Made by a program: the position numbers and the translations under genes. This document shows, piece by piece, positions 1 to 63,590 of a stretch of DNA of 64,000 bases (position 1 is its first letter; each line of letters opens with the position of its first letter). Location: positions 5,253 through 69,252 of the forward strand of contig CAJOHG010000013.1 of NCBI GenBank assembly GCA_905234395.1. The letters run 5' to 3'. Under the pieces are notes generated by a model. It was not told where the DNA came from. It did not search any database and was given only the letters and a program-made list of their open reading frames with translations. This DNA comes from an uncultured Selenomonadaceae bacterium (lineage in GTDB: Bacteria > Bacillota > Negativicutes > Selenomonadales > Selenomonadaceae).

Positions 1-714
1 GCGATTGAACGGCGGCCACGGAAAATTATTGTAAACGACATCAGCTGAATAACGATAATCATCCCGAATTCGCCCGCAAACTGCACGCATCCACGTCATA
101 TGCGGAAAGCTCGTTAAAACTCCGAAGTGCCACAACTTTGCGCCGGGTATCATCAAATTTGCGTCGCCGCAGATAATTTCGCTCGAAACATAATCCATTG
201 GCACATAGAAACGATTTTTCGAGGAGTGTCGCGGCACCAAAAGATAATCCGTTGTCGGCTGTCGACGTTCGGCAAAAAGCCACGGCGTTTCCGCTCTTTT
301 ACGAGTAAGTGCCTTCTTACTTGACAATCGAAAATCTCTGACGGCTTGCACGCGTTGATAAACCGGCGGCATTTTGCGCAATTCATTTGGCGGACAATCT
401 TCGAGCCATAAGCAATAGCGCAGAATATTTTGAATAAATTCCCGCGAGCCGACAAATTTGCGAATCCATTTCTGCGCGGCAGGATTTTCAGCAACGAGTT
501 CATCACGCTCATCGGACGTCAAAAGTAAATTGCCGCCGTCAACAGGCATACTGCCTAAAGTCATATCGGGCACGGTGTAGAAAGGCTCGTTGAAGTCTCG
601 CAGATAAGTTTTCTTGCCGGTGCGTGCGAAGTAGCAAGGAAAGTCGTTGCAATAAAAATCCTTTACCTCAACTTCGATATAACCGTTGCCGCTCGTGTCG
701 AAAAGTTTAACCAT
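1..714 (-). CDS. Stand-alone MmeI-family (type IIL/IIG R-M) target-recognition plus C-terminal region; the 3' end runs off the left edge
   Basis: My own translation from ATG 714..712 has no stop through position 1, checked triplet by triplet. It is missing from the ORF track because there is no stop in the window. MVKLFDTSGNGY...GSMPVDGGNLLLTSDERDEL...RYCLWLEDCPPNELRKMP...HFGVLTSFPHMTWMRAVCGRIRDDYRYSADVVYNNFPW is collinear with GNKPSDGGNLILSPAERKEIL...RYCLWLVNATPKELRKS...HFGILTSSIHMAWMRTVCGYLGTSYRYSSNVVYNNFPW of the ORF at 38184..40298. The start overlaps the upstream stop (ATGGTTAA). Confidence 0.75.
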   Translation of the reverse strand, partial: MVKLFDTSGNGYIEVEVKDFYCNDFPCYFARTGKKTYLRDFNEPFYTVPDMTLGSMPVDGGNLLLTSDERDELVAENPAAQKWIRKFVGSREFIQNILRYCLWLEDCPPNELRKMPPVYQRVQAVRDFRLSSKKALTRKRAETPWLFAERRQPTTDYLLVPRHSSKNRFYVPMDYVSSEIICGDANLMIPGAKLWHFGVLTSFPHMTWMRAVCGRIRDDYRYSADVVYNNFPWPPFNR

Positions 715-1423
715 TGTCGCTCTCCAAGCAGTCGGAAAGTTTTGCCGCGAGTTTGTCGAACAGAGAAATATATTTCTGCGCGACGTGCCGATAAATTTCC
801 GCAGCAGTCTCCGCGTCGTAGGTGTGGCTTGAAAGGTTGCGTTTCTCCAGCATATCTAACCACGTTGCGGCGTCGTCAATCAGCTCCGTTTGAAAAGCTT
901 GACGGATTGCAGAACGCGGGCTGTTGACTTCGAGACCTTCATATTCCAGAAAGGCGCGCATAAGTTTCCACGACAACTCAAAGCAAAATTCAAAACGTTT
1001 AATCGTCGCGTCAAGGTAAAGTTCGTCCGCCGCGATGTCTTTTTCCAATGCCGCATGAAGTTTTGCCAGAGCGTGTGAAAAATCTTCGTGCTTGAGTTTG
1101 ACACGTTCGAGCGTCATTAAAATTTTACCTCCGTCCGCCGCGAATAAAAGTTTGCCGTCGCGTTCGATGTTGAGCAAAAGTTTTTCGCCCGCCGTCTGCA
1201 AATTTACAATGTCAATCGCGTAAGGAAAGGTGCCGCCTTCCAAAGCCGCCGCCAGTTGTGAATGAATCGGTTGCGAAAATTTTATCGCCAAGTCCACATC
1301 GGAATTTTTTCTGTAGTCGCCGCGTGCCCGTGAGCCGAACAATTTCACTTGCGACAAGCCGTCTTTGTGCGCGAAAAAAATTTTCAGCAGAGCTTTTAAT
1401 TGGTCGCTCGATAAACCGTACAT
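707..1423 (-). CDS. Fused minimal nucleotidyltransferase (MNT) - HEPN (HI0074/HepT-like) protein
   Basis: 238 aa. N-terminal LFGSRARG...SDVDLA matches the Pol-beta NTase GS/DxD motifs. C-terminal FEFCFELSWKLM...EKRNLSSHTYD matches a HEPN domain with Rx4H. A TAATG overlap links it to the Hsp70-like gene. Confidence 0.85.
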   Translation of the reverse strand: MYGLSSDQLKALLKIFFAHKDGLSQVKLFGSRARGDYRKNSDVDLAIKFSQPIHSQLAAALEGGTFPYAIDIVNLQTAGEKLLLNIERDGKLLFAADGGKILMTLERVKLKHEDFSHALAKLHAALEKDIAADELYLDATIKRFEFCFELSWKLMRAFLEYEGLEVNSPRSAIRQAFQTELIDDAATWLDMLEKRNLSSHTYDAETAAEIYRHVAQKYISLFDKLAAKLSDCLESDNG

Positions 1424-3042
1424 TAGTCGGCGGAAATGCGGAGCTGATGAACTGCACTGCGCTCAACGTCAATATCGGATTCGGTGCGCAGGAAAGTTTC
1501 AAAAGTCTCATCGGTCTTCGTGTTGACTGCTTCGACATGCACGCCGGACGCGTCAACTTTGAACGTGACTTTAATCGGAGTGTCGCGGCTTGTATTCGGC
1601 GGCAGATTAACGACGAGTTCGCCCAAAAGTTTGACGTTGTGCGCAGGATCGGTAGCTTGCGGGTTGCCGTCCTCGTCGACGCAGGGAATTAACGTGTCGA
1701 ATGCACGGAGCAAAACGCGTTCCTGATTGTCTTCAAGCGGATAGTAAGTCTTGGAAAAAATCGCGGGCATTTTCTCGCCAATCTTGATGAAATTTTCCAA
1801 AACGTATTTATGCTTTGCTCCCGTTGTATCGACGACACCGGGACCGAATGAGCGCGGCGTTTGATCCTCGACTGTGAATTTGCTCGTGAGCTGTTCGGCG
1901 TGCGGAATAGTTTTGCCGGAGCCGTCGGAATTTTCAGTGCCGTCCGCAGAAAGTGAATCGACTTCTTCAACCAACATGCTCGCATAAATCGCCGCACCTT
2001 TCGCGACAGCTTGATCGGGATCGTGTTGCTGAACTTTGCCGGGAAATTTCGCTTCAACCGCGTTGATAATCATCGGCATATACGTTGAGCCGCCGACTAA
2101 CAGCACAGTATCAATCGCTTCGGCGGGAACTTTTTCCAACGTGGCGTCGACAAAATTCATCGTCTTTGCGACAATGTCGGAAGTCATTTGCTCAAAGTCC
2201 GAACGTTTGATTGTAATTTCGGTGCGCGAGCCGTTCACGTCAATGCGAACTTTGGCGGATTGTTTCTTGCTGAGTTTACGTTTAGCCTCCTCGACTTTGG
2301 AGCGAATGTCCTGCCGAGTTTCAGCTTCGACTTCTTCGGGCGTCAAGCCGTTTTCGTCGCAGCAGGCGTGCAAAATGTGGTTGTAAAGTCTGTCGTCCCA
2401 ATCTTTGCCGCCGAGTCTGTCATCGCCGCCGGTAGCAAGCACCGTGATTTTCTGAACGTCGCGTCCCGAATCGTTTTGCGCCATTGACATTTTGACAACG
2501 GTCACGTCGAATGTGCCGCCGCCGAGGTCGTAAACGAGAATCGTCCTGTCTTCCTGGAATTGACGTGCGCAATAACTCAACGCCGCCGCAGTCGGTTCGT
2601 TAATCAAGCTCAAGACGTTTAGCCCGGCAAGTTCGCCTGCCTGTTTGGTCGCGGAACGTTCTTCAAGTCCGAAGTAAGCGGGAACGGTGATGACCACGTC
2701 TTGAATGGTGCCGCCTTGATCTTCGACGAGATTTTTCAGCCGCGTCAAAATCAGTGCGCTAATCTCAACGGGCGTATAAGTTTTGCCGTCGAATTCGTAG
2801 GTGCGAGTGTCGCGTTTGCCGATTTCGCGTTTGACGAATTGCACGACGCGTTCGCCGTCCGTCTCAACGTTTTCTTTAGCCGCCTGTCCGACGACGACAT
2901 TATTTTCATTCTCAAAAAAAACTACGCTTGCCACGGTGTTCGAGTCGTCTTCGTTGTTGCGAATGACTTCGGGATTGCCGTTCGAGTCCAAGCGCGCAAT
3001 GCAAGAGTAAGTTGTTCCCAAATCTATGCCGTAAGTGCTCAT
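1423..3042 (-). CDS. Non-canonical Hsp70-family ATPase lacking the helical lid
   Basis: 539 aa. IDLGTTYSCIA, VITVPAYF, NEPTAAAL, DLGGGTFDV and LVGGSTYMP are Hsp70 NBD motifs. A beta-sandwich SBD follows (PIKVTFKVDASGVHVEAV), and the ORF ends about where the DnaK lid would begin. An RBS GAAGGAGA precedes the ATG. Confidence 0.85.
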   Translation of the reverse strand: MSTYGIDLGTTYSCIARLDSNGNPEVIRNNEDDSNTVASVVFFENENNVVVGQAAKENVETDGERVVQFVKREIGKRDTRTYEFDGKTYTPVEISALILTRLKNLVEDQGGTIQDVVITVPAYFGLEERSATKQAGELAGLNVLSLINEPTAAALSYCARQFQEDRTILVYDLGGGTFDVTVVKMSMAQNDSGRDVQKITVLATGGDDRLGGKDWDDRLYNHILHACCDENGLTPEEVEAETRQDIRSKVEEAKRKLSKKQSAKVRIDVNGSRTEITIKRSDFEQMTSDIVAKTMNFVDATLEKVPAEAIDTVLLVGGSTYMPMIINAVEAKFPGKVQQHDPDQAVAKGAAIYASMLVEEVDSLSADGTENSDGSGKTIPHAEQLTSKFTVEDQTPRSFGPGVVDTTGAKHKYVLENFIKIGEKMPAIFSKTYYPLEDNQERVLLRAFDTLIPCVDEDGNPQATDPAHNVKLLGELVVNLPPNTSRDTPIKVTFKVDASGVHVEAVNTKTDETFETFLRTESDIDVERSAVHQLRISAD

Positions 3043-3285
3043 GTGATTGTTGTCTCCTTCGATTGATTTTTTAGGATCTACTTTTTTTTTGCTGATGAAC
3101 TTCCTTTCTTTGCTTGCCCAAAGAAAGGAAGCGAAAGAAAGGGCACCTCGCAGGGGCGTTCAGTCGTTCGTTGACGCAACGTTAAAACTTTCATCAGCCG
3201 TTAGTGTCGGCAAACTTCGCGTCACGCTCAGTGTGCCGACGACCGCGCGTCCATGCGCGGTCTTTGTTACGTCAATTTGAATATT

Positions 3286-3864
3286 TTATTCCGTGCGAAC
3301 CGATTCAGATTTTCTGACGGTTGTAATTGCCGAGGCGTCGTAAACATAAACGTCAACGAATTCGCGATAGAGCGGGCGACCATTTCTCATGACGCCGGGA
3401 CGACGACTGCGGGCAATGGTGTTGTGCAAATTTTTATCGGCAGTCTTAACGGTGTCGACGATTTTTGTCAGCAGCGGACGACGTTGCTCGCCGACCCGTG
3501 ACGTGAAAATTTCTGCATCGTATTCCGCCAAAATATCTTCCAGCTCGTCGAACATCAAATTGAGTGTCCGACGCATTCGCCGCGAAATTGATTCGTCCGC
3601 CAAAAGTTTTCTATACTCCACGCACACTGTCGCGACTGATTTCAATATCGGCGTGAATTCTTCGCCGCGCTGCTGCTCACGAAAGGCATCCAGTTCTTTC
3701 TGCATTCCGATTCGCACTTGGTTTTGAAAGTTCACGTTCTCGCGCAGTACTTGAGTCAGTTGCCGCGAATTTTTTTCTTGCAAGTCCAAAATTTTTTCTA
3801 CTGTCGCCGCGAATTGATTTTGCTCCGAAATTTCTTCCGCGACGATTTCCGATTGCGTCTCCAA
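3286..3864 (-). CDS. Divergent GrpE-like nucleotide-exchange factor
   Basis: 192 aa with a TTG start after AAAGGAGG. A coiled-coil N-terminal half is followed by a C-terminal AEIFTSRVGEQRRPLLTKIV...RPGVMRNGRPLYREFVDVYVY. This follows the GrpE pattern G.E.I...G..FDP..H.A...GY...gR.lRpA.V.V. Confidence 0.55.
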   Translation of the reverse strand: METQSEIVAEEISEQNQFAATVEKILDLQEKNSRQLTQVLRENVNFQNQVRIGMQKELDAFREQQRGEEFTPILKSVATVCVEYRKLLADESISRRMRRTLNLMFDELEDILAEYDAEIFTSRVGEQRRPLLTKIVDTVKTADKNLHNTIARSRRPGVMRNGRPLYREFVDVYVYDASAITTVRKSESVRTE

Positions 3865-3993
3865 TTTACCGACCTCCTTTCATCGGCAAGATATTATCAG
3901 AAATTCTTCAGATAAACAAGACGCAAGCCTCAACTTCTACGCAAAAAAGCGCAACCCTTCAAAGAGTCACGCTTTTAATTTTACGGTCAATGA

Positions 3994-4695
3994 TTAGCGG
4001 GCAGAAAATTTTTTCCACGCCGCGACGAGTTCACGAGCCGCAAGCTTTGGATTGTCTGCACCGGCTACAGCTGACACGACGAAAAATCCTTGAACTTTTG
4101 TGGCGGCAAGATCGGGAATGTCCGCGAGTTTGACGCCGCCGCCGACAACTACGGGTATCGGGCTAATTTTGGCGAGTTCGGCAAATTCGTCAAAGTCGTG
4201 CGTGATAATTCGTCCGTCCGCAGTTTTGCCGCAATCGGGCTTCGTCAAAGTTTTATGCAACGGCCCGGCACCGAAATAATCAATCTGCGAAACGTCCGCG
4301 CCTTTAACGTAGTCGATAAGCTCTTCCGTCCGCGCACTAAGTCCGACGATTGAATCTTCGCCCAAAAATTTTCGGCACACGTCAACGGGAATGTCGCTCT
4401 GTCCGACGTGAATGCCGTCAACTTTAATGCCGACTTCTCGCGCCGCCAATACAACGTCAAGCCTGTCGTCGACAAGTAGCGCAACCGAATCACTTTTGCC
4501 GAGTTCACGAATCGCCCGCGCAGATTTTTCCAACGTCGCAATTAATTCACGGGCAGTGGCGACTTTCGAGCGAATTTGCACGCAAGTAAAGCCTTCACTG
4601 ACCGCCGCCGCAACGACTTCCTCAACGGGACGCGACGTGTTCTCTTGACCGATAACCAGATACGCGGAAATGTCCAAACGTTCACGAATGCTCAT
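3994..4695 (-). CDS. thiE: Thiamine-phosphate synthase
   Basis: 233 aa. Contains CVQIRSK, GIHVGQSD and VVVGGGV, a TMP-synthase TIM-barrel pattern. It sits in an operon with thiM. Confidence 0.9.
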   Translation of the reverse strand: MSIRERLDISAYLVIGQENTSRPVEEVVAAAVSEGFTCVQIRSKVATARELIATLEKSARAIRELGKSDSVALLVDDRLDVVLAAREVGIKVDGIHVGQSDIPVDVCRKFLGEDSIVGLSARTEELIDYVKGADVSQIDYFGAGPLHKTLTKPDCGKTADGRIITHDFDEFAELAKISPIPVVVGGGVKLADIPDLAATKVQGFFVVSAVAGADNPKLAARELVAAWKKFSAR

Positions 4696-38169: not shown

Positions 38170-38198
38170 AATCTATCACACAATCAATCGCTTGTCAA
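38170..38198 (-). promoter_or_regulatory. Antisense RNA promoter of unit 4; its -35 lies inside the last codons of the R-M gene
   Basis: TTGACA (38198-38193, codons L-T of ...VELTSD*)-N17-TAGATT (38175-38170). Confidence 0.55.
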
Positions 38199-40990
38199 TT
38201 CCACGTAGCGATTCATCAGCTCGCCGACAATTTTTGCCTCGTCGTCCAAAATGTTTTCAAAGCCGTAAGCCAAAGCAACTGCCTTGTCATTTTCGCGATG
38301 AGCTTTTCTCAAATCGGCGGGCATTGTCAATTCGTCGTACAAATCGGCAAGCGTAGAGTCGGGATAATTTTTTCGCGCGTCCAAAATTTTTTGCGCAGTC
38401 GTTTCAATCGCTCGACGCCGGTTATCTGTCGGCTCGCACCACGGAAAATTATTATAAACCACGTTGCTTGAATAGCGATAACTCGTTCCAAGGTAGCCGC
38501 AGACCGTTCGCATCCAAGCCATATGAATTGACGACGTTAAAATTCCAAAGTGATACAGCGTCGCGTTCGGGATAATCAAATTTGCATTGCTCGCGATAAT
38601 ATCAGGTGATACAAATCCCATTGGAATATATTTTCGTCCGCCCGATGAATGACACGGAATTAAAATGTATTCAGTTGTCGGTTGTGATATGAAGAAAAAT
38701 TTATGCGGCGTCTCTGCAGTCTTTCTAGTTGCAGCTGAAGTGCTAGCCTCGCGCATTTTTCTGACGGCATCAACTCGCCGATAAAGTTCTTTGCTTTTGC
38801 GAAGTTCCTTAGGCGTCGCGTTGACAAGCCATAAGCAATAACGTTCGATGTTGTTGATGAATTCGTTGCCGCCGACGTAACGGAAGATAAATTTTTCAAG
38901 TGCAGGCTCGCGTTGAAGAATCTCTTTGCGTTCGGCAGGCGACAGAATCAAATTTCCGCCGTCACTCGGTTTGTTGCCTAAAATAATTCGCGGCACGAAG
39001 TCTTGAAGATGTTTTGCACGGCTCTCGATAAAAATTGTCGGCGCGTCGCACAGGTAAGGATTGATATTTTTCGCGCTGATGATTTCGTCGCCGTCAAAGA
39101 TTTTCTTTTCGACGGGCAAAGACTTATCGGCAATGCAGATAACGACGCAATGAACGCTTGCCTTGTCGAGAGATTCGCTGTCCCATTTGAAAGTTCGGCG
39201 TGCGAAAATGATTTGCATGTTGTATTCGTCGAAAACCTTTTTCCAAAGCGGAGCGAGCTGTTCGCCCTGCGTGATAGAGTTCGTGCTTACAAAGGCGGCT
39301 TTGATGTTGGTGCCGGTCATGAATTTTGCGGCGAGATGATACCACGCGCCAACGTAGTCGACGCTGTTAGAGAGTTTGACTTTGCCGAAAATCTTGACGG
39401 CTTCGGCTTTCTGCGCGGCGTTCATCATGCTTGCACCGACGAAAGGCGGATTTCCGATGATGTAATTCGGTTGCGGACAAATTTTTTGCCAGTCGATTTT
39501 CAAAGCGTTGCCTTCGTGAATGTTTGAATAACTTTTCAGCGGCAGAAAGTCTAAGTCGCGGTGAATAATCTCTCGCGTGTCCTGCATCATTTGCAATTCA
39601 GCGATCCACAATGCAGTTTGCGCGACGGCTACAGCAAAGTCGTTGATTTCGATGCCGTAAAATTGTCCGATTGAAACTTTTATCGGGTTGACGAGTTCGC
39701 CGAGCTGAATTTGACTGCCGAGCAATTCCTTGAGCAATTCGTTTTCAAGTCGACGCAACGACAGATAACTTTCCGTCAAAAAATTCCCGGAGCCGCACGC
39801 AGGATCGAAAATTTTCAACGACGCAAGCTTATCTTGGAACGCGAGCAAATTTTTCTTGCGGTTACGTGACGGAATTTTGGCGATGTCAAATTCGGCTTTA
39901 AGTTCGTCCAAAAATAACGGGTCGATGACTTTGTGGATGTTTTCAATCGCCGTGTAGTGCATGCCGCCGGCGCGTCGAGTTTCGGGATTCAACGTCGATT
40001 CAAACACTGCGCCGAATATCGTCGGACTGATTCCGCTCCAGTTGAAACCGCTTGACGCTTCTTCAAACAACAGCTCGCGAATTTTGGGCGTGAAGTTCGG
40101 AATTTCGATTGAGCCGCTGAAAAGTCCGCCGTTGACGTAAGGAAATTTTTTCAACGTGTCGTCAAGATACGGGTCGCGCTCATCAATCGGAGTGTTCAGC
40201 ACGTCAAACAGATGAATCAAATCCCAACGAATATTTCTTGCCAGTCGCGGAAAATTTTGTGCTTGCCGAAAATGCCCGATGACTCGGCGTAAAGACAAAA
40301 GACCAATCGGACGCAGAGCTTGTTGAGACTGGCTTGACTTTCCGCAGAATTCGGATTGACGTATTGCGCGAGCAAAGCGTTGTAAAGTTTGCCGACGATT
40401 TCGCCCGCCTTCAAGCTCAATTCCAACTCAATGCGAATCTTGTTGCGTTCCTTGTCAATCAGAAAATCCAGCGCGTGAAATTTTTCGGGCAACTCTTCGA
40501 GCAAAATTTTAATCGGCGGCTTCAAAGTTTCCATGTCGTAAATCAGAAACTCTTTGAAATTGCACGTGATGATTTTTTTCGGGTGCATTGAGACCGGCAA
40601 GCCGATAACATACCGCCGCGCCTGTTCGTAAGGTGTGAGCTTCGTTCCGTCCGATTGCGTGATTTCCTTTTCCAAATCGACGCCGCAAGCTTTCTGCTCA
40701 ATCAAAACGTTTGTGTCGGGAAAATAGCCGTCGATAAAACTTTTGTGCGCGAGCTGAACTGGCACTTCAAAGTTTATAAAATTTTCGGGCTTGTCGATGT
40801 CGAAAACGTCACGAATCAGCGTGAGCCAAAATTTTTGATAATCAGCACGTTCATTGGCGACAACGTTTGAGCGCGGCTTATCGGTTGAAATTTTTTGAAA
40901 CTCCGTCGCGTCCGCTGTTCCGTCGCTTTTAAAGCGACCACGTTCGCCGTTGACTTCGCGCCACTGCTTGACAAAATTTTTTACGTTCAA
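38184..40990 (-). pseudogene. MmeI-family type IIL/IIG restriction-modification fusion enzyme, split by one frameshift
   Basis: Track ORFs 40217..40990 and 38184..40298 overlap by 82 nt in different frames. The first carries the nuclease FIDGYFPDTNVLIEQK and the helical LVFCLYAESSGIF. The second carries LFDVLNTP, FPYVNGGLF, FDPACGSGNFL, GNPPFVG, the TRD and HMAWMRTVCG...YNNFPW. Together they total about 940 aa, similar to MmeI. The start is TTG after GGAAGGAGG. Confidence 0.85.
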
Positions 40991-41529: not shown

Positions 41530-41753
41530 CAAAAGACGATTTGACGTTTAAGCTTAAGCTCGTAAAGGAGTGATGCGATTGCTTGAGTGTAAATTCGTCT
41601 CGACAAAGTAAAAAAATTACGCCGACAAAGTGGATTGTCAACGCTAATTGCAAAATATATAAGTTCAAAAACATTTTAACACATTTATAAAAAATAGCAA
41701 TGGCTTTTGGCAATTCCTCTTTTGGCGTGGAAATTTCAAAGGAGGAATTAATC

Positions 41754-42473
41754 ATGGCTAACGAAAAGAAAATTAGTGCTGATTGCAAAGACGTTTGGAA
41801 CGCATTCATGGTGAGAAGTGCAGATTTTCCGCAGAATGGTATTGGCATTCCGTTTTGCCCGACGACCGCGAAAGAAATTCCGTGCGAACTCATCTCCTAC
41901 ACCGAAGCGAGAGCTACTTACAATCGGCAGATGAAGCGCGACAACAAAAATTTTTTCGTGAACTCTTTTGTTCACTTCTATCAACATGATCGCAAATTCG
42001 ACGGTAAACGTTGCGGGATATGGTTTCAACCTCGGAGAGCCGCAGAAATTTTTCGGCACTTCGCGGGCATCATTACTCCCGACTTCTCGACCAATCTCGA
42101 TTTCCCGTTCCCGTGGAAAATTTTCAACACCTATCGAATGCGGGCGTTCGGCTATTGGTACGGCACACTCGGCGGCGCGGTCATTAACAATGTTCGTTGG
42201 GGCGAAGAGGATACTTTCAGCTGGTGCTTTGAGGGTATAGCGCACAACAGTATCGTTTCAATCGGAACGGTTGCGAGCGGACTTCGTGATTTTGAAAATC
42301 GTAAACTTTTTGAGACCGGCTTTTTCAAGATGATTGAAGTGTTGCGCCCGCATACAATAATTGTTTACGGCTCGGACAAATATTCATGCATTGAAAGCGT
42401 GCGTCAGCAAATCAAAATTGTACAATTCGACAGCGAACGCGCCCTTGCCTTTGCGGAGAAAAATCATGTCTAA
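41754..42473 (+). CDS. DUF4417-family protein
   Basis: The start MANEKK follows AAAGGAGGA. FVHFYQHDRKFD...GIITPDFSTNLDFPFPWKIFNTYRMRAFGYWY...VINNVRWGEEDTFSWCFEGIAHNSIVSIG matches the DUF4417 pattern as I recall it (HFF.DD.FE...PDFS...N.YR...VIP...W...S...CF.G). Confidence 0.65.
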   Translation: MANEKKISADCKDVWNAFMVRSADFPQNGIGIPFCPTTAKEIPCELISYTEARATYNRQMKRDNKNFFVNSFVHFYQHDRKFDGKRCGIWFQPRRAAEIFRHFAGIITPDFSTNLDFPFPWKIFNTYRMRAFGYWYGTLGGAVINNVRWGEEDTFSWCFEGIAHNSIVSIGTVASGLRDFENRKLFETGFFKMIEVLRPHTIIVYGSDKYSCIESVRQQIKIVQFDSERALAFAEKNHV

Positions 42474-59679: not shown

Positions 59680-60915
59680 TTAACGAACCATGCGGTACAT
59701 CAAATCTTCTTGCGCCTTCATGCATTTCATCAGCTCAAATCGTTCCAAAATCGTTTCGCGAGCCGCCGCGCCGAGTTTCCGTGCACGTTCGGGATCGTCG
59801 AGTTGCTCTTCAATCTTTCGCGCAATGTGATAAGGTGAGCGGAACTCTGCAAGCAAACCGTTGACGCCGTCTTCCATGACTTCTTGCACAGGCGGAGTTT
59901 TTGAGCCGACCATCGGACAAGCAAAACTCATTGCCTCAAGACACGACCAACTTAAAACGAATGGACGCGTCAAATAAACGTGACAGCTTGACGCACGCAA
60001 AATTTTCTGATAGTCGCCGCGATTTCTCAAGCCGACGAAATGCACACGGTCTGTTGGGTAGCCGCCCTTCTTCTCTTCTTCCTTAAGATAAGTCGTGTCC
60101 TTGAGTTGCGCGCCGTAACAGATTCTGTCCTTGCCGACAACAACAACATGAGTATTCGGGCGACGAGCCAACACGTGGCGAATCGCGTCCATGAAATACG
60201 GGAAGCCGCGATAAATTTCAAAGCCGCGAGCAACGTAAGTGATAATTTCTGTGCCTTCGGGCAGGTTAAGTTGAACGTCGTCAAGCACAAGTCCGGGACG
60301 TTTGCCGCTGGGATCGGGCGAACAAAATCTCGTGTCGATGCCCTCGTGAATGATGTTGAGCTTAGGCTTGTACTCTTCCGGGAATTGCGAATACTGCCAC
60401 TTAGTCGGACAAATTCCGGCGTCACACAGCTGCAAATTCATCAAGTGATGAGCGTTGCGCGTGCGAATGGAAATGCGGTTGCCGACTTGCGGAATTTCAT
60501 CGGGCCACCAATAACAATCGCTGTCCTCAACGAGATAATACCACTCGAAATAGCCGATAATCGGAACGTTCGGATACATGTCCTTACAATAGAGCGTCGA
60601 TCCCCAACCTGTGTGACCGATAATCACGTCGGGCTTGACGTTCTTTTCTTTGGCGAGCCAATCCATTGCGCGAAGAACAGATTGCCCTTCAACGACAGCC
60701 TCTGCCGCCGGACGCAACGGGCCGCAAGTTTTAATCCACTCGTCGGATTTTTCATTCGGCTTTGGATAAAGTGCAAGCGTCACGCCTTTGAGTTGCGCGT
60801 TGATAGAATTTTCCTTCGACAGGAAGTAAACGTTGTTTTCGGGATTGCTTGCCAGATACGGCGCGATATTGAGATACTGCGCGGGAAACGACGGGTGCAG
60901 AATAAAAATATTCAC
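59680..60915 (-). CDS. GT4-family (GT1-fold) glycosyltransferase
   Basis: 411 aa. Contains SWSCLEAMSFACPMVGSKTPPVQEVMEDGVNGLL. The GTG start overlaps the res stop (GTGA). Confidence 0.8.
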   Translation of the reverse strand: MNIFILHPSFPAQYLNIAPYLASNPENNVYFLSKENSINAQLKGVTLALYPKPNEKSDEWIKTCGPLRPAAEAVVEGQSVLRAMDWLAKEKNVKPDVIIGHTGWGSTLYCKDMYPNVPIIGYFEWYYLVEDSDCYWWPDEIPQVGNRISIRTRNAHHLMNLQLCDAGICPTKWQYSQFPEEYKPKLNIIHEGIDTRFCSPDPSGKRPGLVLDDVQLNLPEGTEIITYVARGFEIYRGFPYFMDAIRHVLARRPNTHVVVVGKDRICYGAQLKDTTYLKEEEKKGGYPTDRVHFVGLRNRGDYQKILRASSCHVYLTRPFVLSWSCLEAMSFACPMVGSKTPPVQEVMEDGVNGLLAEFRSPYHIARKIEEQLDDPERARKLGAAARETILERFELMKCMKAQEDLMYRMVR

Positions 60916-63590
60916 GATAGATTCTCTCCTTTTGCAAACTCATTAAAAATATTGTCCAACTCATTGTTACTTGCGGCGCGAATCACTCTGTCACGAATCG
61001 CGCTCTTTGACATATCCAGCCGCGTGAAAATTTTTTGTCCGAGTATATTTTTTTCGCGAATCAGTTGCAACCTTCCGACTTTGGAATTTTCTTCGGCGTA
61101 AACGGCGAGAGCTTTTGCCTTGCCGATATTGTCTCTGAAGTTTGAATCATGCGGCTCCAAAATATCAACGACGTAAGCATTTTCATTGCGGCGCACGATT
61201 AAAAAATCCGGGTAAAAAAGTTTTGTATTGCCGTGCTCGTCTTGATAGGGAATGCTCAATGACCACGGCGCGCGTTGACAATTTCTTAACCAACAGACAA
61301 AATCCTTGCAACGTTGCTCTTCATGCAGGATACTTTCTTCCCAACCGTTGAGCTTAATCGTTGCCGTGCCCGTCGCCGCATCAACGAACAAATGATCCGA
61401 ATAACTTTTGCCGTCAACATCATGCGTCATTGAAATTGTCATCGGCAGTTCAAAATTGTGCGTGCTGACTTCGTCGCCATTTGAAACAATTTTATCATAT
61501 TCATTTTTCGTTGCGGACGGCAAGCCGATAATTTCGCGTCGGAATTTGTCGCACAGCGCATGAAATTTTTCTTTGGCGAAACGTTCAAGCTTGATAAGAT
61601 TGTCGGCGTCCTTCACAAAAAGAATCACGTCAATCTTGCCGTCGTCAAGGTTATCGGGCGGAAAAAAATTCGTCAAATATCTGTTGGCAACGCCCGCACT
61701 TTTCAACGTCTTCTCTGCCTGTCGAAATTGCCGCTCAATGTCAGTGTCGGTCGTCACGAAAAGATTTTGACTCACAGCTTGATTAACTCCTTCACCGAAC
61801 GCGTCAAAAATCTGCGCGGACAATTTGAACTCTCTGGCTTGACGATTGAGCGCGTCATATTTGCCCGCAGACTTCAGCTCGTCAATGTACTGTCGAATGA
61901 ACGCGGCAACGTCATCAAGCGCGGTATCGAATGCCTCGCGGAATAAATTGCTCCACATGAGAAAATGCGCCATGTTTAAAAAAGATTGCAAAGCGTCGTT
62001 GATTTGCGCACGATTTATTTTGTAAGTCGACAATCCCAACGCGTTGACGGCTTTGACAATTTCCTCGCGGTCGAAAGAAATTTGCGCGTTAAAATTTTTT
62101 GCGACATCCTGAACGCCTTCCGAAGCCAACGTAAAATTTTCAAGCGGCGTCGAATTGACGGCAGAAAAATTTTCAACGGGCGTCCGCGCAGATATTTTTG
62201 CAACGCCTTTGACTGTCAACGGAACGATTTTTTTCGCACCGAGACTTTCGCCGACAATCTCCGCAGGAATTTCTCCGTTCTCCGATTTGTGAAGCTTGTC
62301 GACAATTTCTTGAACGGTGCTCTCGTCGAAATGCGGCAAATACAATCGGACTTCGTTCAAAGTGTCGTCCTCATCAATGCGGCGTTGCAACGGCGTGCGA
62401 ATCATTCTGCCCAAAAGTTGAGCGATATACGTTGCGTCGACTGCGCGGCGGAAAGACATCATCGTTTCGGCTTTCGGACAGTCCCAGCCCGTTGAAAGAT
62501 TTTCTTTAAAGAACACCACGCGAATATTGTCCCTGCCCGAAATTTTTGACGGCTCAACATGATTGACGCGCAGACCGTTTATCGTCAAGTCAGCTGTCTC
62601 TCCGAACGTGTGAACGACTTCGCCAAGTTTAAATTCAATGCCCGTGCGCTGTGAAATTTTCTTCAAGCAGTCGTCCAAATCGGTATCGGAAATTTTTTTC
62701 GCGGAACTGTTCTCGACTTGCACGACAAAAATCGGATTGAAACTCTTATCGCCGAGATATTGCCGCCAATGTTCGCATTTGCTCTTCCAATCGTCAGCCG
62801 CCGCCTCAAGAATCGCCATATCCTTTGCAACGGAAATGCTCGTTCGCTCGTCGGGATAAATGACGACAATTCGCTCCTTGAGCAAGCCGGACGCTTTGAC
62901 TTCGGCATTGGTCACGATAACGCGTTGAATCGTCGCAGAACTTTTCGCAACCAAATTGTTGAATCGTTCAATCGTCGCGCTCATGCCAATCACTACGGGC
63001 ACGGGCTTAAAGTTGTCGTCAACGCTGCCCTTGATGAATTTTTGCATGATGGTCGTCGCACGTCCTGCCGCAACGCCTTTCATGCCGCGATGTGCCTCGT
63101 CAATGATGAAATAAATTTTGTCAGTCTTGGCTTTGATTGTGTTGCTCAACGTCTCCCAAATCGTGTACTGTCGAAAATCGGAGTGGCGCGTCAAATTGCT
63201 GCCCTTACCGAGTTTTTGCGTGTTCAGAAAATAAATCTTGCCGTCGTCCAAAGTTTGCGCGTCAAAAGTTTCATCTTCAATCATCACAAGTTGCGAATGA
63301 TTTATACCGTCGGCATTGAAATAAAATTTGTCAAGCGACTGCCGATTGAGTTCGGGCGAATCACTCAACCAAACAAAAATCGCGTCGGGCTGTGCAAGAT
63401 AATTTTCGTCGCCGCAATAAACTCTTTCAACCAATGACGCCAACATTATCGTTTTGCCCGCGCCCGTCGGTGCTGTGAATGAAATTGCCTGCGGAATTTT
63501 TCTGCGCAAATACAATTCCTGCGCGTCGTACAGATAATCCCGCAATTCCCGCACGGCGTTCATTTGGAAAGGGAGCAGTTCAATTTTCAT
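60912..63590 (-). CDS. res: Type III restriction enzyme Res-like helicase/endonuclease subunit
   Basis: 892 aa. Contains FTAPTGAGKT (motif I), IIDEAHRG (DEAH) and SATIE. The C-terminal FYPDFLIVRRNENAYVVDILEP looks like a possible nuclease core. Confidence 0.8.
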   Translation of the reverse strand: MKIELLPFQMNAVRELRDYLYDAQELYLRRKIPQAISFTAPTGAGKTIMLASLVERVYCGDENYLAQPDAIFVWLSDSPELNRQSLDKFYFNADGINHSQLVMIEDETFDAQTLDDGKIYFLNTQKLGKGSNLTRHSDFRQYTIWETLSNTIKAKTDKIYFIIDEAHRGMKGVAAGRATTIMQKFIKGSVDDNFKPVPVVIGMSATIERFNNLVAKSSATIQRVIVTNAEVKASGLLKERIVVIYPDERTSISVAKDMAILEAAADDWKSKCEHWRQYLGDKSFNPIFVVQVENSSAKKISDTDLDDCLKKISQRTGIEFKLGEVVHTFGETADLTINGLRVNHVEPSKISGRDNIRVVFFKENLSTGWDCPKAETMMSFRRAVDATYIAQLLGRMIRTPLQRRIDEDDTLNEVRLYLPHFDESTVQEIVDKLHKSENGEIPAEIVGESLGAKKIVPLTVKGVAKISARTPVENFSAVNSTPLENFTLASEGVQDVAKNFNAQISFDREEIVKAVNALGLSTYKINRAQINDALQSFLNMAHFLMWSNLFREAFDTALDDVAAFIRQYIDELKSAGKYDALNRQAREFKLSAQIFDAFGEGVNQAVSQNLFVTTDTDIERQFRQAEKTLKSAGVANRYLTNFFPPDNLDDGKIDVILFVKDADNLIKLERFAKEKFHALCDKFRREIIGLPSATKNEYDKIVSNGDEVSTHNFELPMTISMTHDVDGKSYSDHLFVDAATGTATIKLNGWEESILHEEQRCKDFVCWLRNCQRAPWSLSIPYQDEHGNTKLFYPDFLIVRRNENAYVVDILEPHDSNFRDNIGKAKALAVYAEENSKVGRLQLIREKNILGQKIFTRLDMSKSAIRDRVIRAASNNELDNIFNEFAKGENLS

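Follow-up and report, generated by a model that had tools for sequence, protein, structure and literature searches.

A 64-kb stretch of DNA from a rumen Selenomonadaceae bacterium of the Quinella group (referred to here as the window) carries four co-oriented genes at its left end, between positions 1 and 3864 of the minus strand. These encode a GrpE-like protein, an Hsp70 without the helical lid, a minimal nucleotidyltransferase fused to a HEPN domain (MNT-HEPN) and a protein made up of the target recognition domain (TRD) and C-terminal domain of the MmeI family (solo TRD-C). The GrpE-like gene (positions 3286-3864; 192 aa with a TTG start), whose product is a putative nucleotide-exchange factor for the adjacent Hsp70, is separated by a 243-nt spacer (3043-3285) from the Hsp70 gene (1423-3042; 539 aa), which is followed by MNT-HEPN (707-1423; 238 aa) and by solo TRD-C (1-714), which is open at the window edge with 238 codons of a 321-aa protein visible. 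The Hsp70 stop and the MNT-HEPN start overlap by 1 nt (the plus strand has CATTA at 1421-1425, so that the genes read TAATG), and the MNT-HEPN stop and the TRD start overlap by 8 nt (plus-strand TTAACCAT at 707-714, which is ATGGTTAA on the gene strand). The four open reading frames (ORFs) and both start/stop overlaps were thus found in the sequence as given in a preliminary description of this DNA. Pairwise comparisons of the window genes with those of relatives gave ratios of nonsynonymous to synonymous substitution rates (dN/dS) between 0.045 and 0.34 across all four genes, all of which are under purifying selection. Positions 1 to 3864 hold the 5' portion of what is predicted to be a longer operon with all genes in one direction.

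The locus was compared across genomes using a scan of one genome per species, which yielded 80 loci and, with six loci collected earlier, a total of 86; ORFs were called and clustered, and tblastn was performed with the window proteins. Counts of slot contents and partner genes refer to the 46 species-level Selenomonadaceae loci with at least 1.5 kb of sequence downstream of Hsp70, each spanning up to 10 kb per side. No canonical dnaK, dnaJ or grpE was found in the whole 64 kb of the window, and no CIRCE inverted repeat was matched within 3 mismatches; the reported absence of hrcA, dnaJ and CIRCE therefore stands for the latter two, hrcA not having been searched for. A search of positions 1 to 4500 against Rfam returned nothing credible, and a scan for consensus promoters and terminators remained at background level. 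PADLOC, which holds no models for GAP1 or for the partner genes c2, c3 and c8 described below, gave only a weak match of a nucleotide-binding domain (NBD) to the candidate PDC-M61B and nothing for c2, c3, c8 or GAP1.

The lid-less Hsp70 and its GrpE-like neighbor

The Pfam HSP70 profile matched the 539-aa protein at 2.5e-90, with residues 5 to 517 covering profile positions 3 to 495 of 599. The ATPase motifs are intact (DLGTT at residues 7-11, NEPTAAA at 148-154, DLGGGTFD at 172-179 and GGSTYMP at 317-323), and the architecture combines a complete NBD with a beta substrate-binding domain, approximately 25 additional residues being inserted ahead of the linker. In an alignment with the 618-aa canonical DnaK of a relative (34% identity), residue 533 corresponds to DnaK residue 494, at which point the alignment ends. 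Alignments with PDB sequences stop at approximately residue 500 of DnaK and at residue 497 of Hsc70, and a low-confidence AlphaFold model (mean pLDDT, 57) contains only beta strands past residue 360. These end points confirm that the protein ends before the helical lid, as had been read from the sequence.

Scored against the DnaK equivalog model, this Hsp70 reaches 299 bits, with the cut-off at 648. Three relatives with an Hsp70 that is 83 to 84% identical to that of the window (L052 to L054) also possess a canonical grpE-dnaK-dnaJ operon approximately 8 kb away, with products of 189 aa (GrpE), 618 aa (DnaK; 981 bits against the same cut-off of 648) and 392 aa (DnaJ). As the score lies below the cut-off and the canonical operon coexists with the pair in these relatives, the proposal that the GrpE-like/Hsp70 pair is probably not the housekeeping chaperone operon is supported. 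Identity to the Hsp70 of the window is 77 to 97% across Selenomonadaceae species and 61 to 66% in Clostridia, Aerococcaceae and a Bacteroides metagenome-assembled genome (MAG), and dN/dS for the gene is 0.045 to 0.06. The pair often adjoins thiamine-biosynthesis genes, and its genomic position varies within Selenomonadaceae. Separately, one species (L008:8409-11321, minus strand) encodes, some 4 kb past its lid-less Hsp70 on the downstream side, a 970-aa protein that clusters with the Hsp70s and may be another Hsp70 fusion.

The 192-aa product of the upstream gene was matched by the Pfam GrpE profile at 2.2e-5 and 24.6 bits, just below the gathering cut-off of 25.8, with the match spanning profile positions 5 to 156 of 165. 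PF01025 is precomputed on most of its close homologues, some of which are called GrpE by NCBI. The gene lies directly upstream of Hsp70 in nearly all of the 86 loci, including the distant ones, in which the GrpE-like homologues are 44 to 54% identical (Lachnospiraceae, Oscillospiraceae, Aerococcaceae and the Bacteroides MAG); its dN/dS is 0.11 to 0.18.

The spacer between the two genes measures only 15 to 220 nt in relatives, compared with 243 nt in the window. It is strongly structured (minimum free energy of -82.7 kcal/mol; z = -4.6 against shuffled sequences) and ends, on the 3' side, with GAAGGAG, the ribosome-binding site of Hsp70; no Rfam match of note was obtained for it. Within the spacer, at approximately 3100 to 3170, is a palindromic repeat of approximately 70 nt that resembles repetitive extragenic palindromes (REP) or miniature inverted-repeat transposable elements (MITE) and has a perfect 12-bp stem (TTCCTTTCTTTG...CAAAGAAAGGAA). 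This repeat is dispersed: further copies, facing either way, lie between genes at unrelated places in L003, L010, L012, L073, L078 and L095.

Up to four small co-oriented genes, belonging to clusters c7, c10, c4 and c6 and encoding proteins of 120 to 220 aa, precede the GrpE-like gene in a clade whose Hsp70 is approximately 85% identical to that of the window (L040 to L043, L047, L050, L052 to L055, L069 to L071 and L085). The window has thiamine genes at the same position. These small genes could be further components of the system.

The probable operon beyond the window edge and its variable slot

An exact-sequence search with the Hsp70 of the window returned no match. When the 238 TRD residues inside the window were used as the query of a homology search, a 321-aa protein, P0121, was identified that is 100% identical over those residues. 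Three independent metagenome contigs carrying P0121 (L092 to L094) are 99.2 to 100% identical to the left end of the window and give the gene order in this strain as Hsp70, MNT-HEPN, TRD-C (321 aa), a YefM-like gene (73 aa), YoeB and c2. The visible part of c2 is at least 934 aa long and is 77% identical to the c2 of L010. YoeB (L092:2927-3190; also in L093 and L094) is interrupted by a premature stop, W17*, and the YefM-like gene upstream of it is intact. The stop is present in three independent assemblies, and the YoeB toxin appears to be inactivated in this strain.

The c2 protein is approximately 1,075 aa in length. Its N-terminal domain is helical, a double zinc ribbon is present in all 19 members and its beta repeats bear a weak similarity to fibronectin type III (FNIII); no TPR was detected in it. 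It is encoded on the same strand downstream of Hsp70 in 22 of the 46 species loci, and the order c2, c3, c8 was found in at least 10 loci. The c3 protein (approximately 384 aa) has two CxxC zinc ribbons, a Walker A motif (GxxGxGK[ST]), a Walker B motif with the family glutamate (DGAGE) and a TKxD motif, and the Pfam DO-GTPase1 profile reaches 29.4 bits for the long paralogue. By these motifs, c3 of the relatives is a DO-GTPase. The c8 protein (approximately 198 aa) carries an N-terminal segment resembling a signal peptide. In two other loci (L055 and L071), c2 is followed by members of clusters c108, c109 and c110 (approximately 468, 757 and 994 aa) and not by the DO-GTPase and c8; the operon may thus have a different rear portion in these loci.

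A fuller gene set was identified in the Clostridial homologues (L072 to L086), comprising a four-transmembrane DO-GTPase, the GrpE-like protein, Hsp70, a protein joining an Hsp70 NBD to a vWA domain (Hsp70-NBD-vWA), c2, a zinc-ribbon DO-GTPase and GAP1, with the Pfam GAP1-M domain found in five of five Clostridial GAP1 proteins (best match, 1.4e-6). Conflict systems centered on DO-GTPase and GAP1 GTPases, predicted to be NTP dependent, have been described by computational analysis (Kaur, Burroughs, Iyer and Aravind 2020, eLife 9:e52696, PMC7159879). According to that article, the GAP1-N2 type has HSP70 and GrpE in approximately 14% of its neighborhoods, sometimes with a second HSP70 without the peptide-binding domain and with a protein in which FNIII repeats are joined to DnaJ or TPR; the variable components, which are fused to the FNIII gene or encoded beside it, differ even between close relatives. 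Judged by gene content, the Clostridial homologues match the HSP70-GrpE theme in section 29 of the article. The remark in the preliminary description that it knew of no described system with this composition must consequently be corrected, since a link of HSP70 and GrpE to DO-GTPase systems had already been predicted by computation (PMC7159879).

The interval between Hsp70 and c2, here termed the slot, ranges from 31 to 3,013 nt. It is empty in 8 species, in which c2 starts 31 to 117 nt past the Hsp70 stop; in other species small genes of the same orientation, amounting to as much as 3 kb, fill the interval. The occupants include YefM/YoeB (TIGR02116, 77 bits), a DUF4160/DhiT-like pair, MNT-HEPN and solo TRD-C, which vary in combination and order between strains and are separated by gaps of 3 to 16 nt in L001, L007, L016, L021, L033 and L037. 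Larger genes were also found just after Hsp70: a full MmeI-family gene 100 nt after it in L064 (4140-6470), a full MmeI-family enzyme just downstream of it in L060 (13193-15892) and a 904-aa TPR-helicase-HNH protein between Hsp70 and c2 in L012 (11694-14408). With restriction-modification (R-M), helicase-HNH and toxin-antitoxin genes recurring at this position, the site behaves as a hotspot of defense genes, in keeping with the conflict or defense character first suggested for the neighborhood.

MNT-HEPN follows Hsp70 in only 5 of the 46 species loci and solo TRD-C in 6; the two occur together in a single locus (L021), where they are not adjacent. In the closest relative sampled (L007; 97% Hsp70 identity) the slot holds MNT-HEPN and no TRD. 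As the slot contents differ between related rumen bacteria, MNT-HEPN and the TRD protein are, judged by synteny, not conserved partners of the chaperone, and the earlier idea that the Hsp70/GrpE pair is hard-wired to both does not hold.

For MNT-HEPN, Pfam identified NTase_sub_bind, the HEPN domain of the HI0074 family (7e-37), and a Polbeta/NTP_transf_2 nucleotidyltransferase domain (4e-14), and the TIGR01987 model of the HI0074 subfamily was passed with 126 bits (cut-off, 55.8). Scores for the NCBIfam equivalogs were below the cut-off of 60, at 54.3 bits for MntA and 17.8 bits for HepT. The MNT half has the motifs GSRARG (residues 30-35) and DVD (42-44), and the HEPN half has RNLSSHTY (195-202), corresponding to Rx4HxY. 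The fusion recognized in the preliminary description is therefore borne out by domains and catalytic motifs of both halves, and MNT-HEPN is a putative single-chain module of the type VII toxin-antitoxin kind. Its dN/dS is 0.12 to 0.34. Compared with L007, the synonymous divergence (dS) of MNT-HEPN and that of Hsp70 are about equal (0.19 and 0.215, respectively), which fits co-inheritance of the two genes.

The ORF at the left edge was matched by Pfam MmeI_TRD at 6e-74. Its ATG coincides with the TRD boundary and is preceded by stop codons in the same frame, and the domains of P0121 are PF20466 (MmeI_TRD) and PF20467 (MmeI_C) only. Because P0121 and the contigs L092 to L094 show the end of the gene, it does not continue into an R-M enzyme; the gene encodes a complete, stand-alone TRD+C protein of 321 aa and is not part of a full R-M gene, in agreement with the initial reading of the truncated ORF as a recognition and C-terminal part. 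The best 120 homologues all consist of TRD and C only, most being 300 to 335 aa long and a few shorter, and the more remote homologues, when clustered at 50%, are for the most part enzymes of 900 to 960 aa with a C-terminal TRD. Five of the eight loci obtained by TRD-based searches are at unrelated housekeeping sites, and in only some of the eight is the gene in the Hsp70 slot. The copies found elsewhere (286 to 326 aa; L087, L088, L089, L090/L091, L095 and L099) lie after mutL, fabF or an ABC permease gene, with further sites after rpe and a small ORF and between EamA and an aminotransferase gene. Solo TRD-C is a gene family of its own and, given these unrelated sites, is not specific to the Hsp70 system.

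Two other identities were considered for solo TRD-C. That of a phage gene was rejected, as ten of the 11 checked matches (of 12 on viral contigs, at 41 to 49% identity) lie in full-length enzymes of 923 to 975 aa and one in a 515-aa ORF. That of a decaying fragment was rejected on account of the conserved length and a dN/dS of 0.10 to 0.24. Approximately 3 kb from the solo TRD-C of L095, the other strand encodes a 553-aa methylase of the Eco57I type together with a ResIII protein and a small MNT.

The window also contains a full-length MmeI-family R-M gene (38184-40990, minus strand) that is frameshifted near 40232-40240 into two ORFs, of 257 aa (MmeI_N and the start of MmeI_hel) and 704 aa (the rest of MmeI_hel, the methyltransferase, TRD and C). 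The split may reflect a pseudogene, phase variation or a sequencing error. Solo TRD-C, 37 kb apart, is only 51% identical to the TRD-C part of this gene, for which it was also considered as a possible recombination donor or trans-acting specificity subunit. A DUF4417 protein is encoded opposite to the frameshifted gene at a distance of approximately 700 nt (41700-42473, plus strand), and an 892-aa protein of the ResIII/SWI2-SNF2 helicase type near the right end of the window (60912-63590, minus strand). Both may be further defense or mobile-element genes.

Interpretation of the operon and its slot

Taken together, we assign a probability of about two in three to the reading that the locus is a reduced Selenomonadaceae DO-GTPase/Hsp70-GrpE operon with an internal variable slot, of which MNT-HEPN and TRD-C are changing occupants. 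The operon would run from the GrpE-like exchange factor through the lid-less Hsp70 and the slot to c2 and, in relatives, to the DO-GTPase and c8. The ATPase-competent Hsp70, cycled by its own GrpE-like factor, would remodel or assemble a complex of c2 and the GTPase, a role specific to these proteins as opposed to general protein folding. MNT-HEPN would be self-contained, its nucleotidyltransferase half silencing the RNase half by a modification of the Rx4HxY tyrosine, on the model of HepT/MntA. The cassettes would be co-transcribed passengers of a hotspot for defense and mobile genes, not obligate partners of the chaperone.

Several observations weigh against this reading. GAP1 was absent within 10 kb in every Selenomonadaceae locus when searched for by hmmsearch with a profile of the Clostridial proteins, which matched only in L072 to L086. 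The GrpE homology of the 192-aa protein appears borderline: the near full-length Pfam coverage and the position directly upstream of Hsp70 uphold the identity first proposed for it, but the score is below the cut-off, a profile of the family run against PDB sequences retrieves no GrpE, hhalign against the canonical GrpE of a relative gives only 0.5% probability, and in the AlphaFold model only helices 4-89 and 95-114 are predicted with confidence, pLDDT falling below 50 over residues 117 to 192. In c2, fn3 was found in only 3 of 19 members (best E value, 0.0026), with a weak fibronectin match in PDB (E value, 0.006), and the N terminus resembles J-domain helices I and II but lacks the HPD motif, hhalign against J domains giving only 9% probability. 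The DO-GTPase and c8 that follow c2 are known from relatives only, as L092 ends inside c2. Moreover, in 18 species for which 5 kb or more can be read downstream, the GrpE-like/Hsp70 pair is retained and c2 is missing from the adjacent 5 to 10 kb, and the Hsp70 is equally constrained in these loci (dN/dS of 0.053, compared with 0.062 in c2-positive loci); the pair may therefore act without c2, or c2 may be located elsewhere in these genomes. The seamless translational coupling to Hsp70 could make the cassettes functional parts and not passengers. Finally, no experimental test of any DO-GTPase system was found in the literature searched, and with PADLOC lacking models for these proteins, the defense role is itself a prediction.

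Whether the cassettes are passengers or payload is the point on which the first alternative turns. It holds that the slot is a dedicated site for exchangeable effectors or sensors licensed by the chaperone/GTPase core, so that the cassettes are working parts, and we regard it as possible though unlikely. A position exactly 5' of the FNIII-like gene, together with the translational coupling, favors payload, and the systems of Kaur et al. (PMC7159879) likewise combine a constant core with components that vary between close relatives, among them an inactive-form module that a TRD+C protein without nuclease or methyltransferase would fit. The cassettes are under purifying selection, co-oriented and tightly packed (overlaps of 1 and 8 nt; gaps of 3 to 16 nt), and so have no room for promoters of their own. 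However, the occurrence of the same cassettes elsewhere in genomes, together with slots that stand empty in 8 species, favors passengers: solo TRD-C is found beside mutL, fabF, rpe, the ABC permease gene and EamA, and a c24-like gene beside rpe, all with no Hsp70. The toxins bring their own antitoxin or neutralizing domain, as free-standing modules do, YoeB is stopped prematurely in three independent assemblies of this strain, and complete, autonomous defense genes are present in the slot, as in a hotspot. A more explicit proposal, which seems rather improbable to us, is that the Hsp70-c2 junction is a cassette port at which the chaperone/GTPase core triggers exchangeable co-translated toxins (fused MNT-HEPN, YoeB and DUF4160/DhiT), with TRD-C, devoid of catalytic domains, as a sensor or decoy. 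If true, it would be a modular, chaperone-gated platform for toxin deployment that evolves by cassette swapping.

A second alternative dispenses with defense and takes the GrpE-like/Hsp70 pair to be a lineage-specific auxiliary chaperone similar to HscC or HscA, which might serve in the envelope or in an assembly process together with c2 and the secreted c8, the genes around it marking a mere recombination hotspot. The strong constraint on Hsp70 (dN/dS of approximately 0.05, equal with or without an adjacent c2), the retention of the pair in 18 species without a nearby c2, the frequent thiamine-biosynthesis neighbors and the signal peptide of c8 would all be consistent with such a task, and the literature searched describes no defense phenotype for any DO-GTPase system. 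The distribution of the pair argues otherwise, being patchy across phyla, with 61 to 66% identity in scattered Clostridia, Aerococcaceae and a Bacteroides MAG, which suggests horizontal transfer, and its genomic position is not fixed within Selenomonadaceae. In addition, the full homologues carry GAP1, vWA and paired GTPases, which are hallmarks of predicted conflict systems, and R-M, helicase-HNH and toxin-antitoxin genes are repeatedly nearby. We therefore consider an auxiliary chaperone of this kind doubtful. That the four genes of the window form one dedicated system, in which the Hsp70 and its exchange factor gate MNT-HEPN and the TRD supplies DNA specificity, is very improbable, for although the last three genes overlap start to stop in this strain, all four are under purifying selection and L021 also holds both MNT-HEPN and TRD-C in its slot, the linkage is not conserved (5/46 and 6/46 loci, with both in 1/46), the two are non-adjacent in L021, cassette order differs between strains, the slot of L007 has MNT-HEPN without the TRD and TRD-C is mostly found elsewhere in genomes.

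If the locus is indeed a reduced DO-GTPase/Hsp70-GrpE operon, it bears on a group of Hsp70-containing systems known from one comparative-genomics study only. The Selenomonadaceae form is compact, with five core genes and no GAP1, and offers a natural series of slots from empty to six cassettes, making it a tractable starting point. The questions it opens are the role, in a conflict-type operon, of a dedicated Hsp70 that lacks the lid and is paired with an exchange factor of its own, whether the adjacent toxin-antitoxin genes are passengers or payload and the role of a free-standing MmeI TRD+C protein.

Comparison with known systems

Solo TRD-C shares the TRD and C-terminal domains with the MmeI-family type IIL/IIG R-M enzymes, with 51 to 54% identity to the corresponding region of full-length members, among them the frameshifted copy in the window. 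It differs from them in having no nuclease, helicase-like spacer or gamma-class methyltransferase and in being a free-standing protein of approximately 320 aa that is conserved in length and scattered among housekeeping genes. No description of free-standing MmeI TRD+C proteins was found in the literature searched.

In type VII HepT/MntA systems, a HEPN RNase is neutralized through AMPylation by a minimal nucleotidyltransferase, and the Tyr of the Rx4HxY motif is the residue of HepT that MntA modifies. MNT-HEPN has the catalytic motifs of both halves (GSx...DxD and Rx4HxY) in common with these systems. Unlike HepT and MntA, which are the products of two genes, its halves are fused into one chain of 238 aa, and the gene is translationally coupled to Hsp70 and does not have a promoter region of its own.

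The window's Hsp70 can also be likened to specialized bacterial Hsp70s of the HscC (YbeW) type, which are second Hsp70s of approximately 540 to 560 aa that have a truncated or absent lid and exist beside a canonical DnaK. HscC reportedly works with the J-protein DjlC and has no need for GrpE. By contrast, the Hsp70 of the window has a GrpE-like gene as its constant partner, and no J domain bearing an HPD motif was found.

With the HSP70-GrpE theme of Kaur et al. (PMC7159879), the locus and its relatives share an Hsp70 with its own putative GrpE-like gene, a large zinc-ribbon protein with putative FNIII-like repeats, a DO-GTPase that carries the Walker B glutamate and a pair of N-terminal zinc ribbons (c3 of the relatives) and variable genes beside the FNIII-like gene. 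The Selenomonadaceae form departs from the theme in that GAP1, a second GTPase and the Hsp70-NBD-vWA gene are absent within 10 kb, a conserved secreted protein of approximately 198 aa (c8) is added, and c2 has no detected HPD-containing J domain or TPR. A slot between Hsp70 and c2 with toxin-antitoxin or TRD genes was not found in the searched parts of PMC7159879; the text of the article has no mention of MmeI, and HEPN appears in the reference list only. As a defining component, GAP1, is missing, the Selenomonadaceae form was classified as a reduced variant and not as a member of the theme.

A further point of comparison is provided by the type III CoCoNuT systems, in which a GTPase resembling McrB is the partner and the Hsp70-like CnuD/CnuCD proteins have degenerate ATPase motifs (Bell et al. 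2024, PMC11090510). Both cases place a unit of Hsp70 nucleotide-binding and substrate-binding domains in a predicted GTPase-containing defense operon involving HEPN RNases. The Hsp70 of the window differs from CnuD/CnuCD in its intact ATPase motifs, in the DO type of the GTPase encoded with it in relatives and in its dedicated, putative exchange factor.

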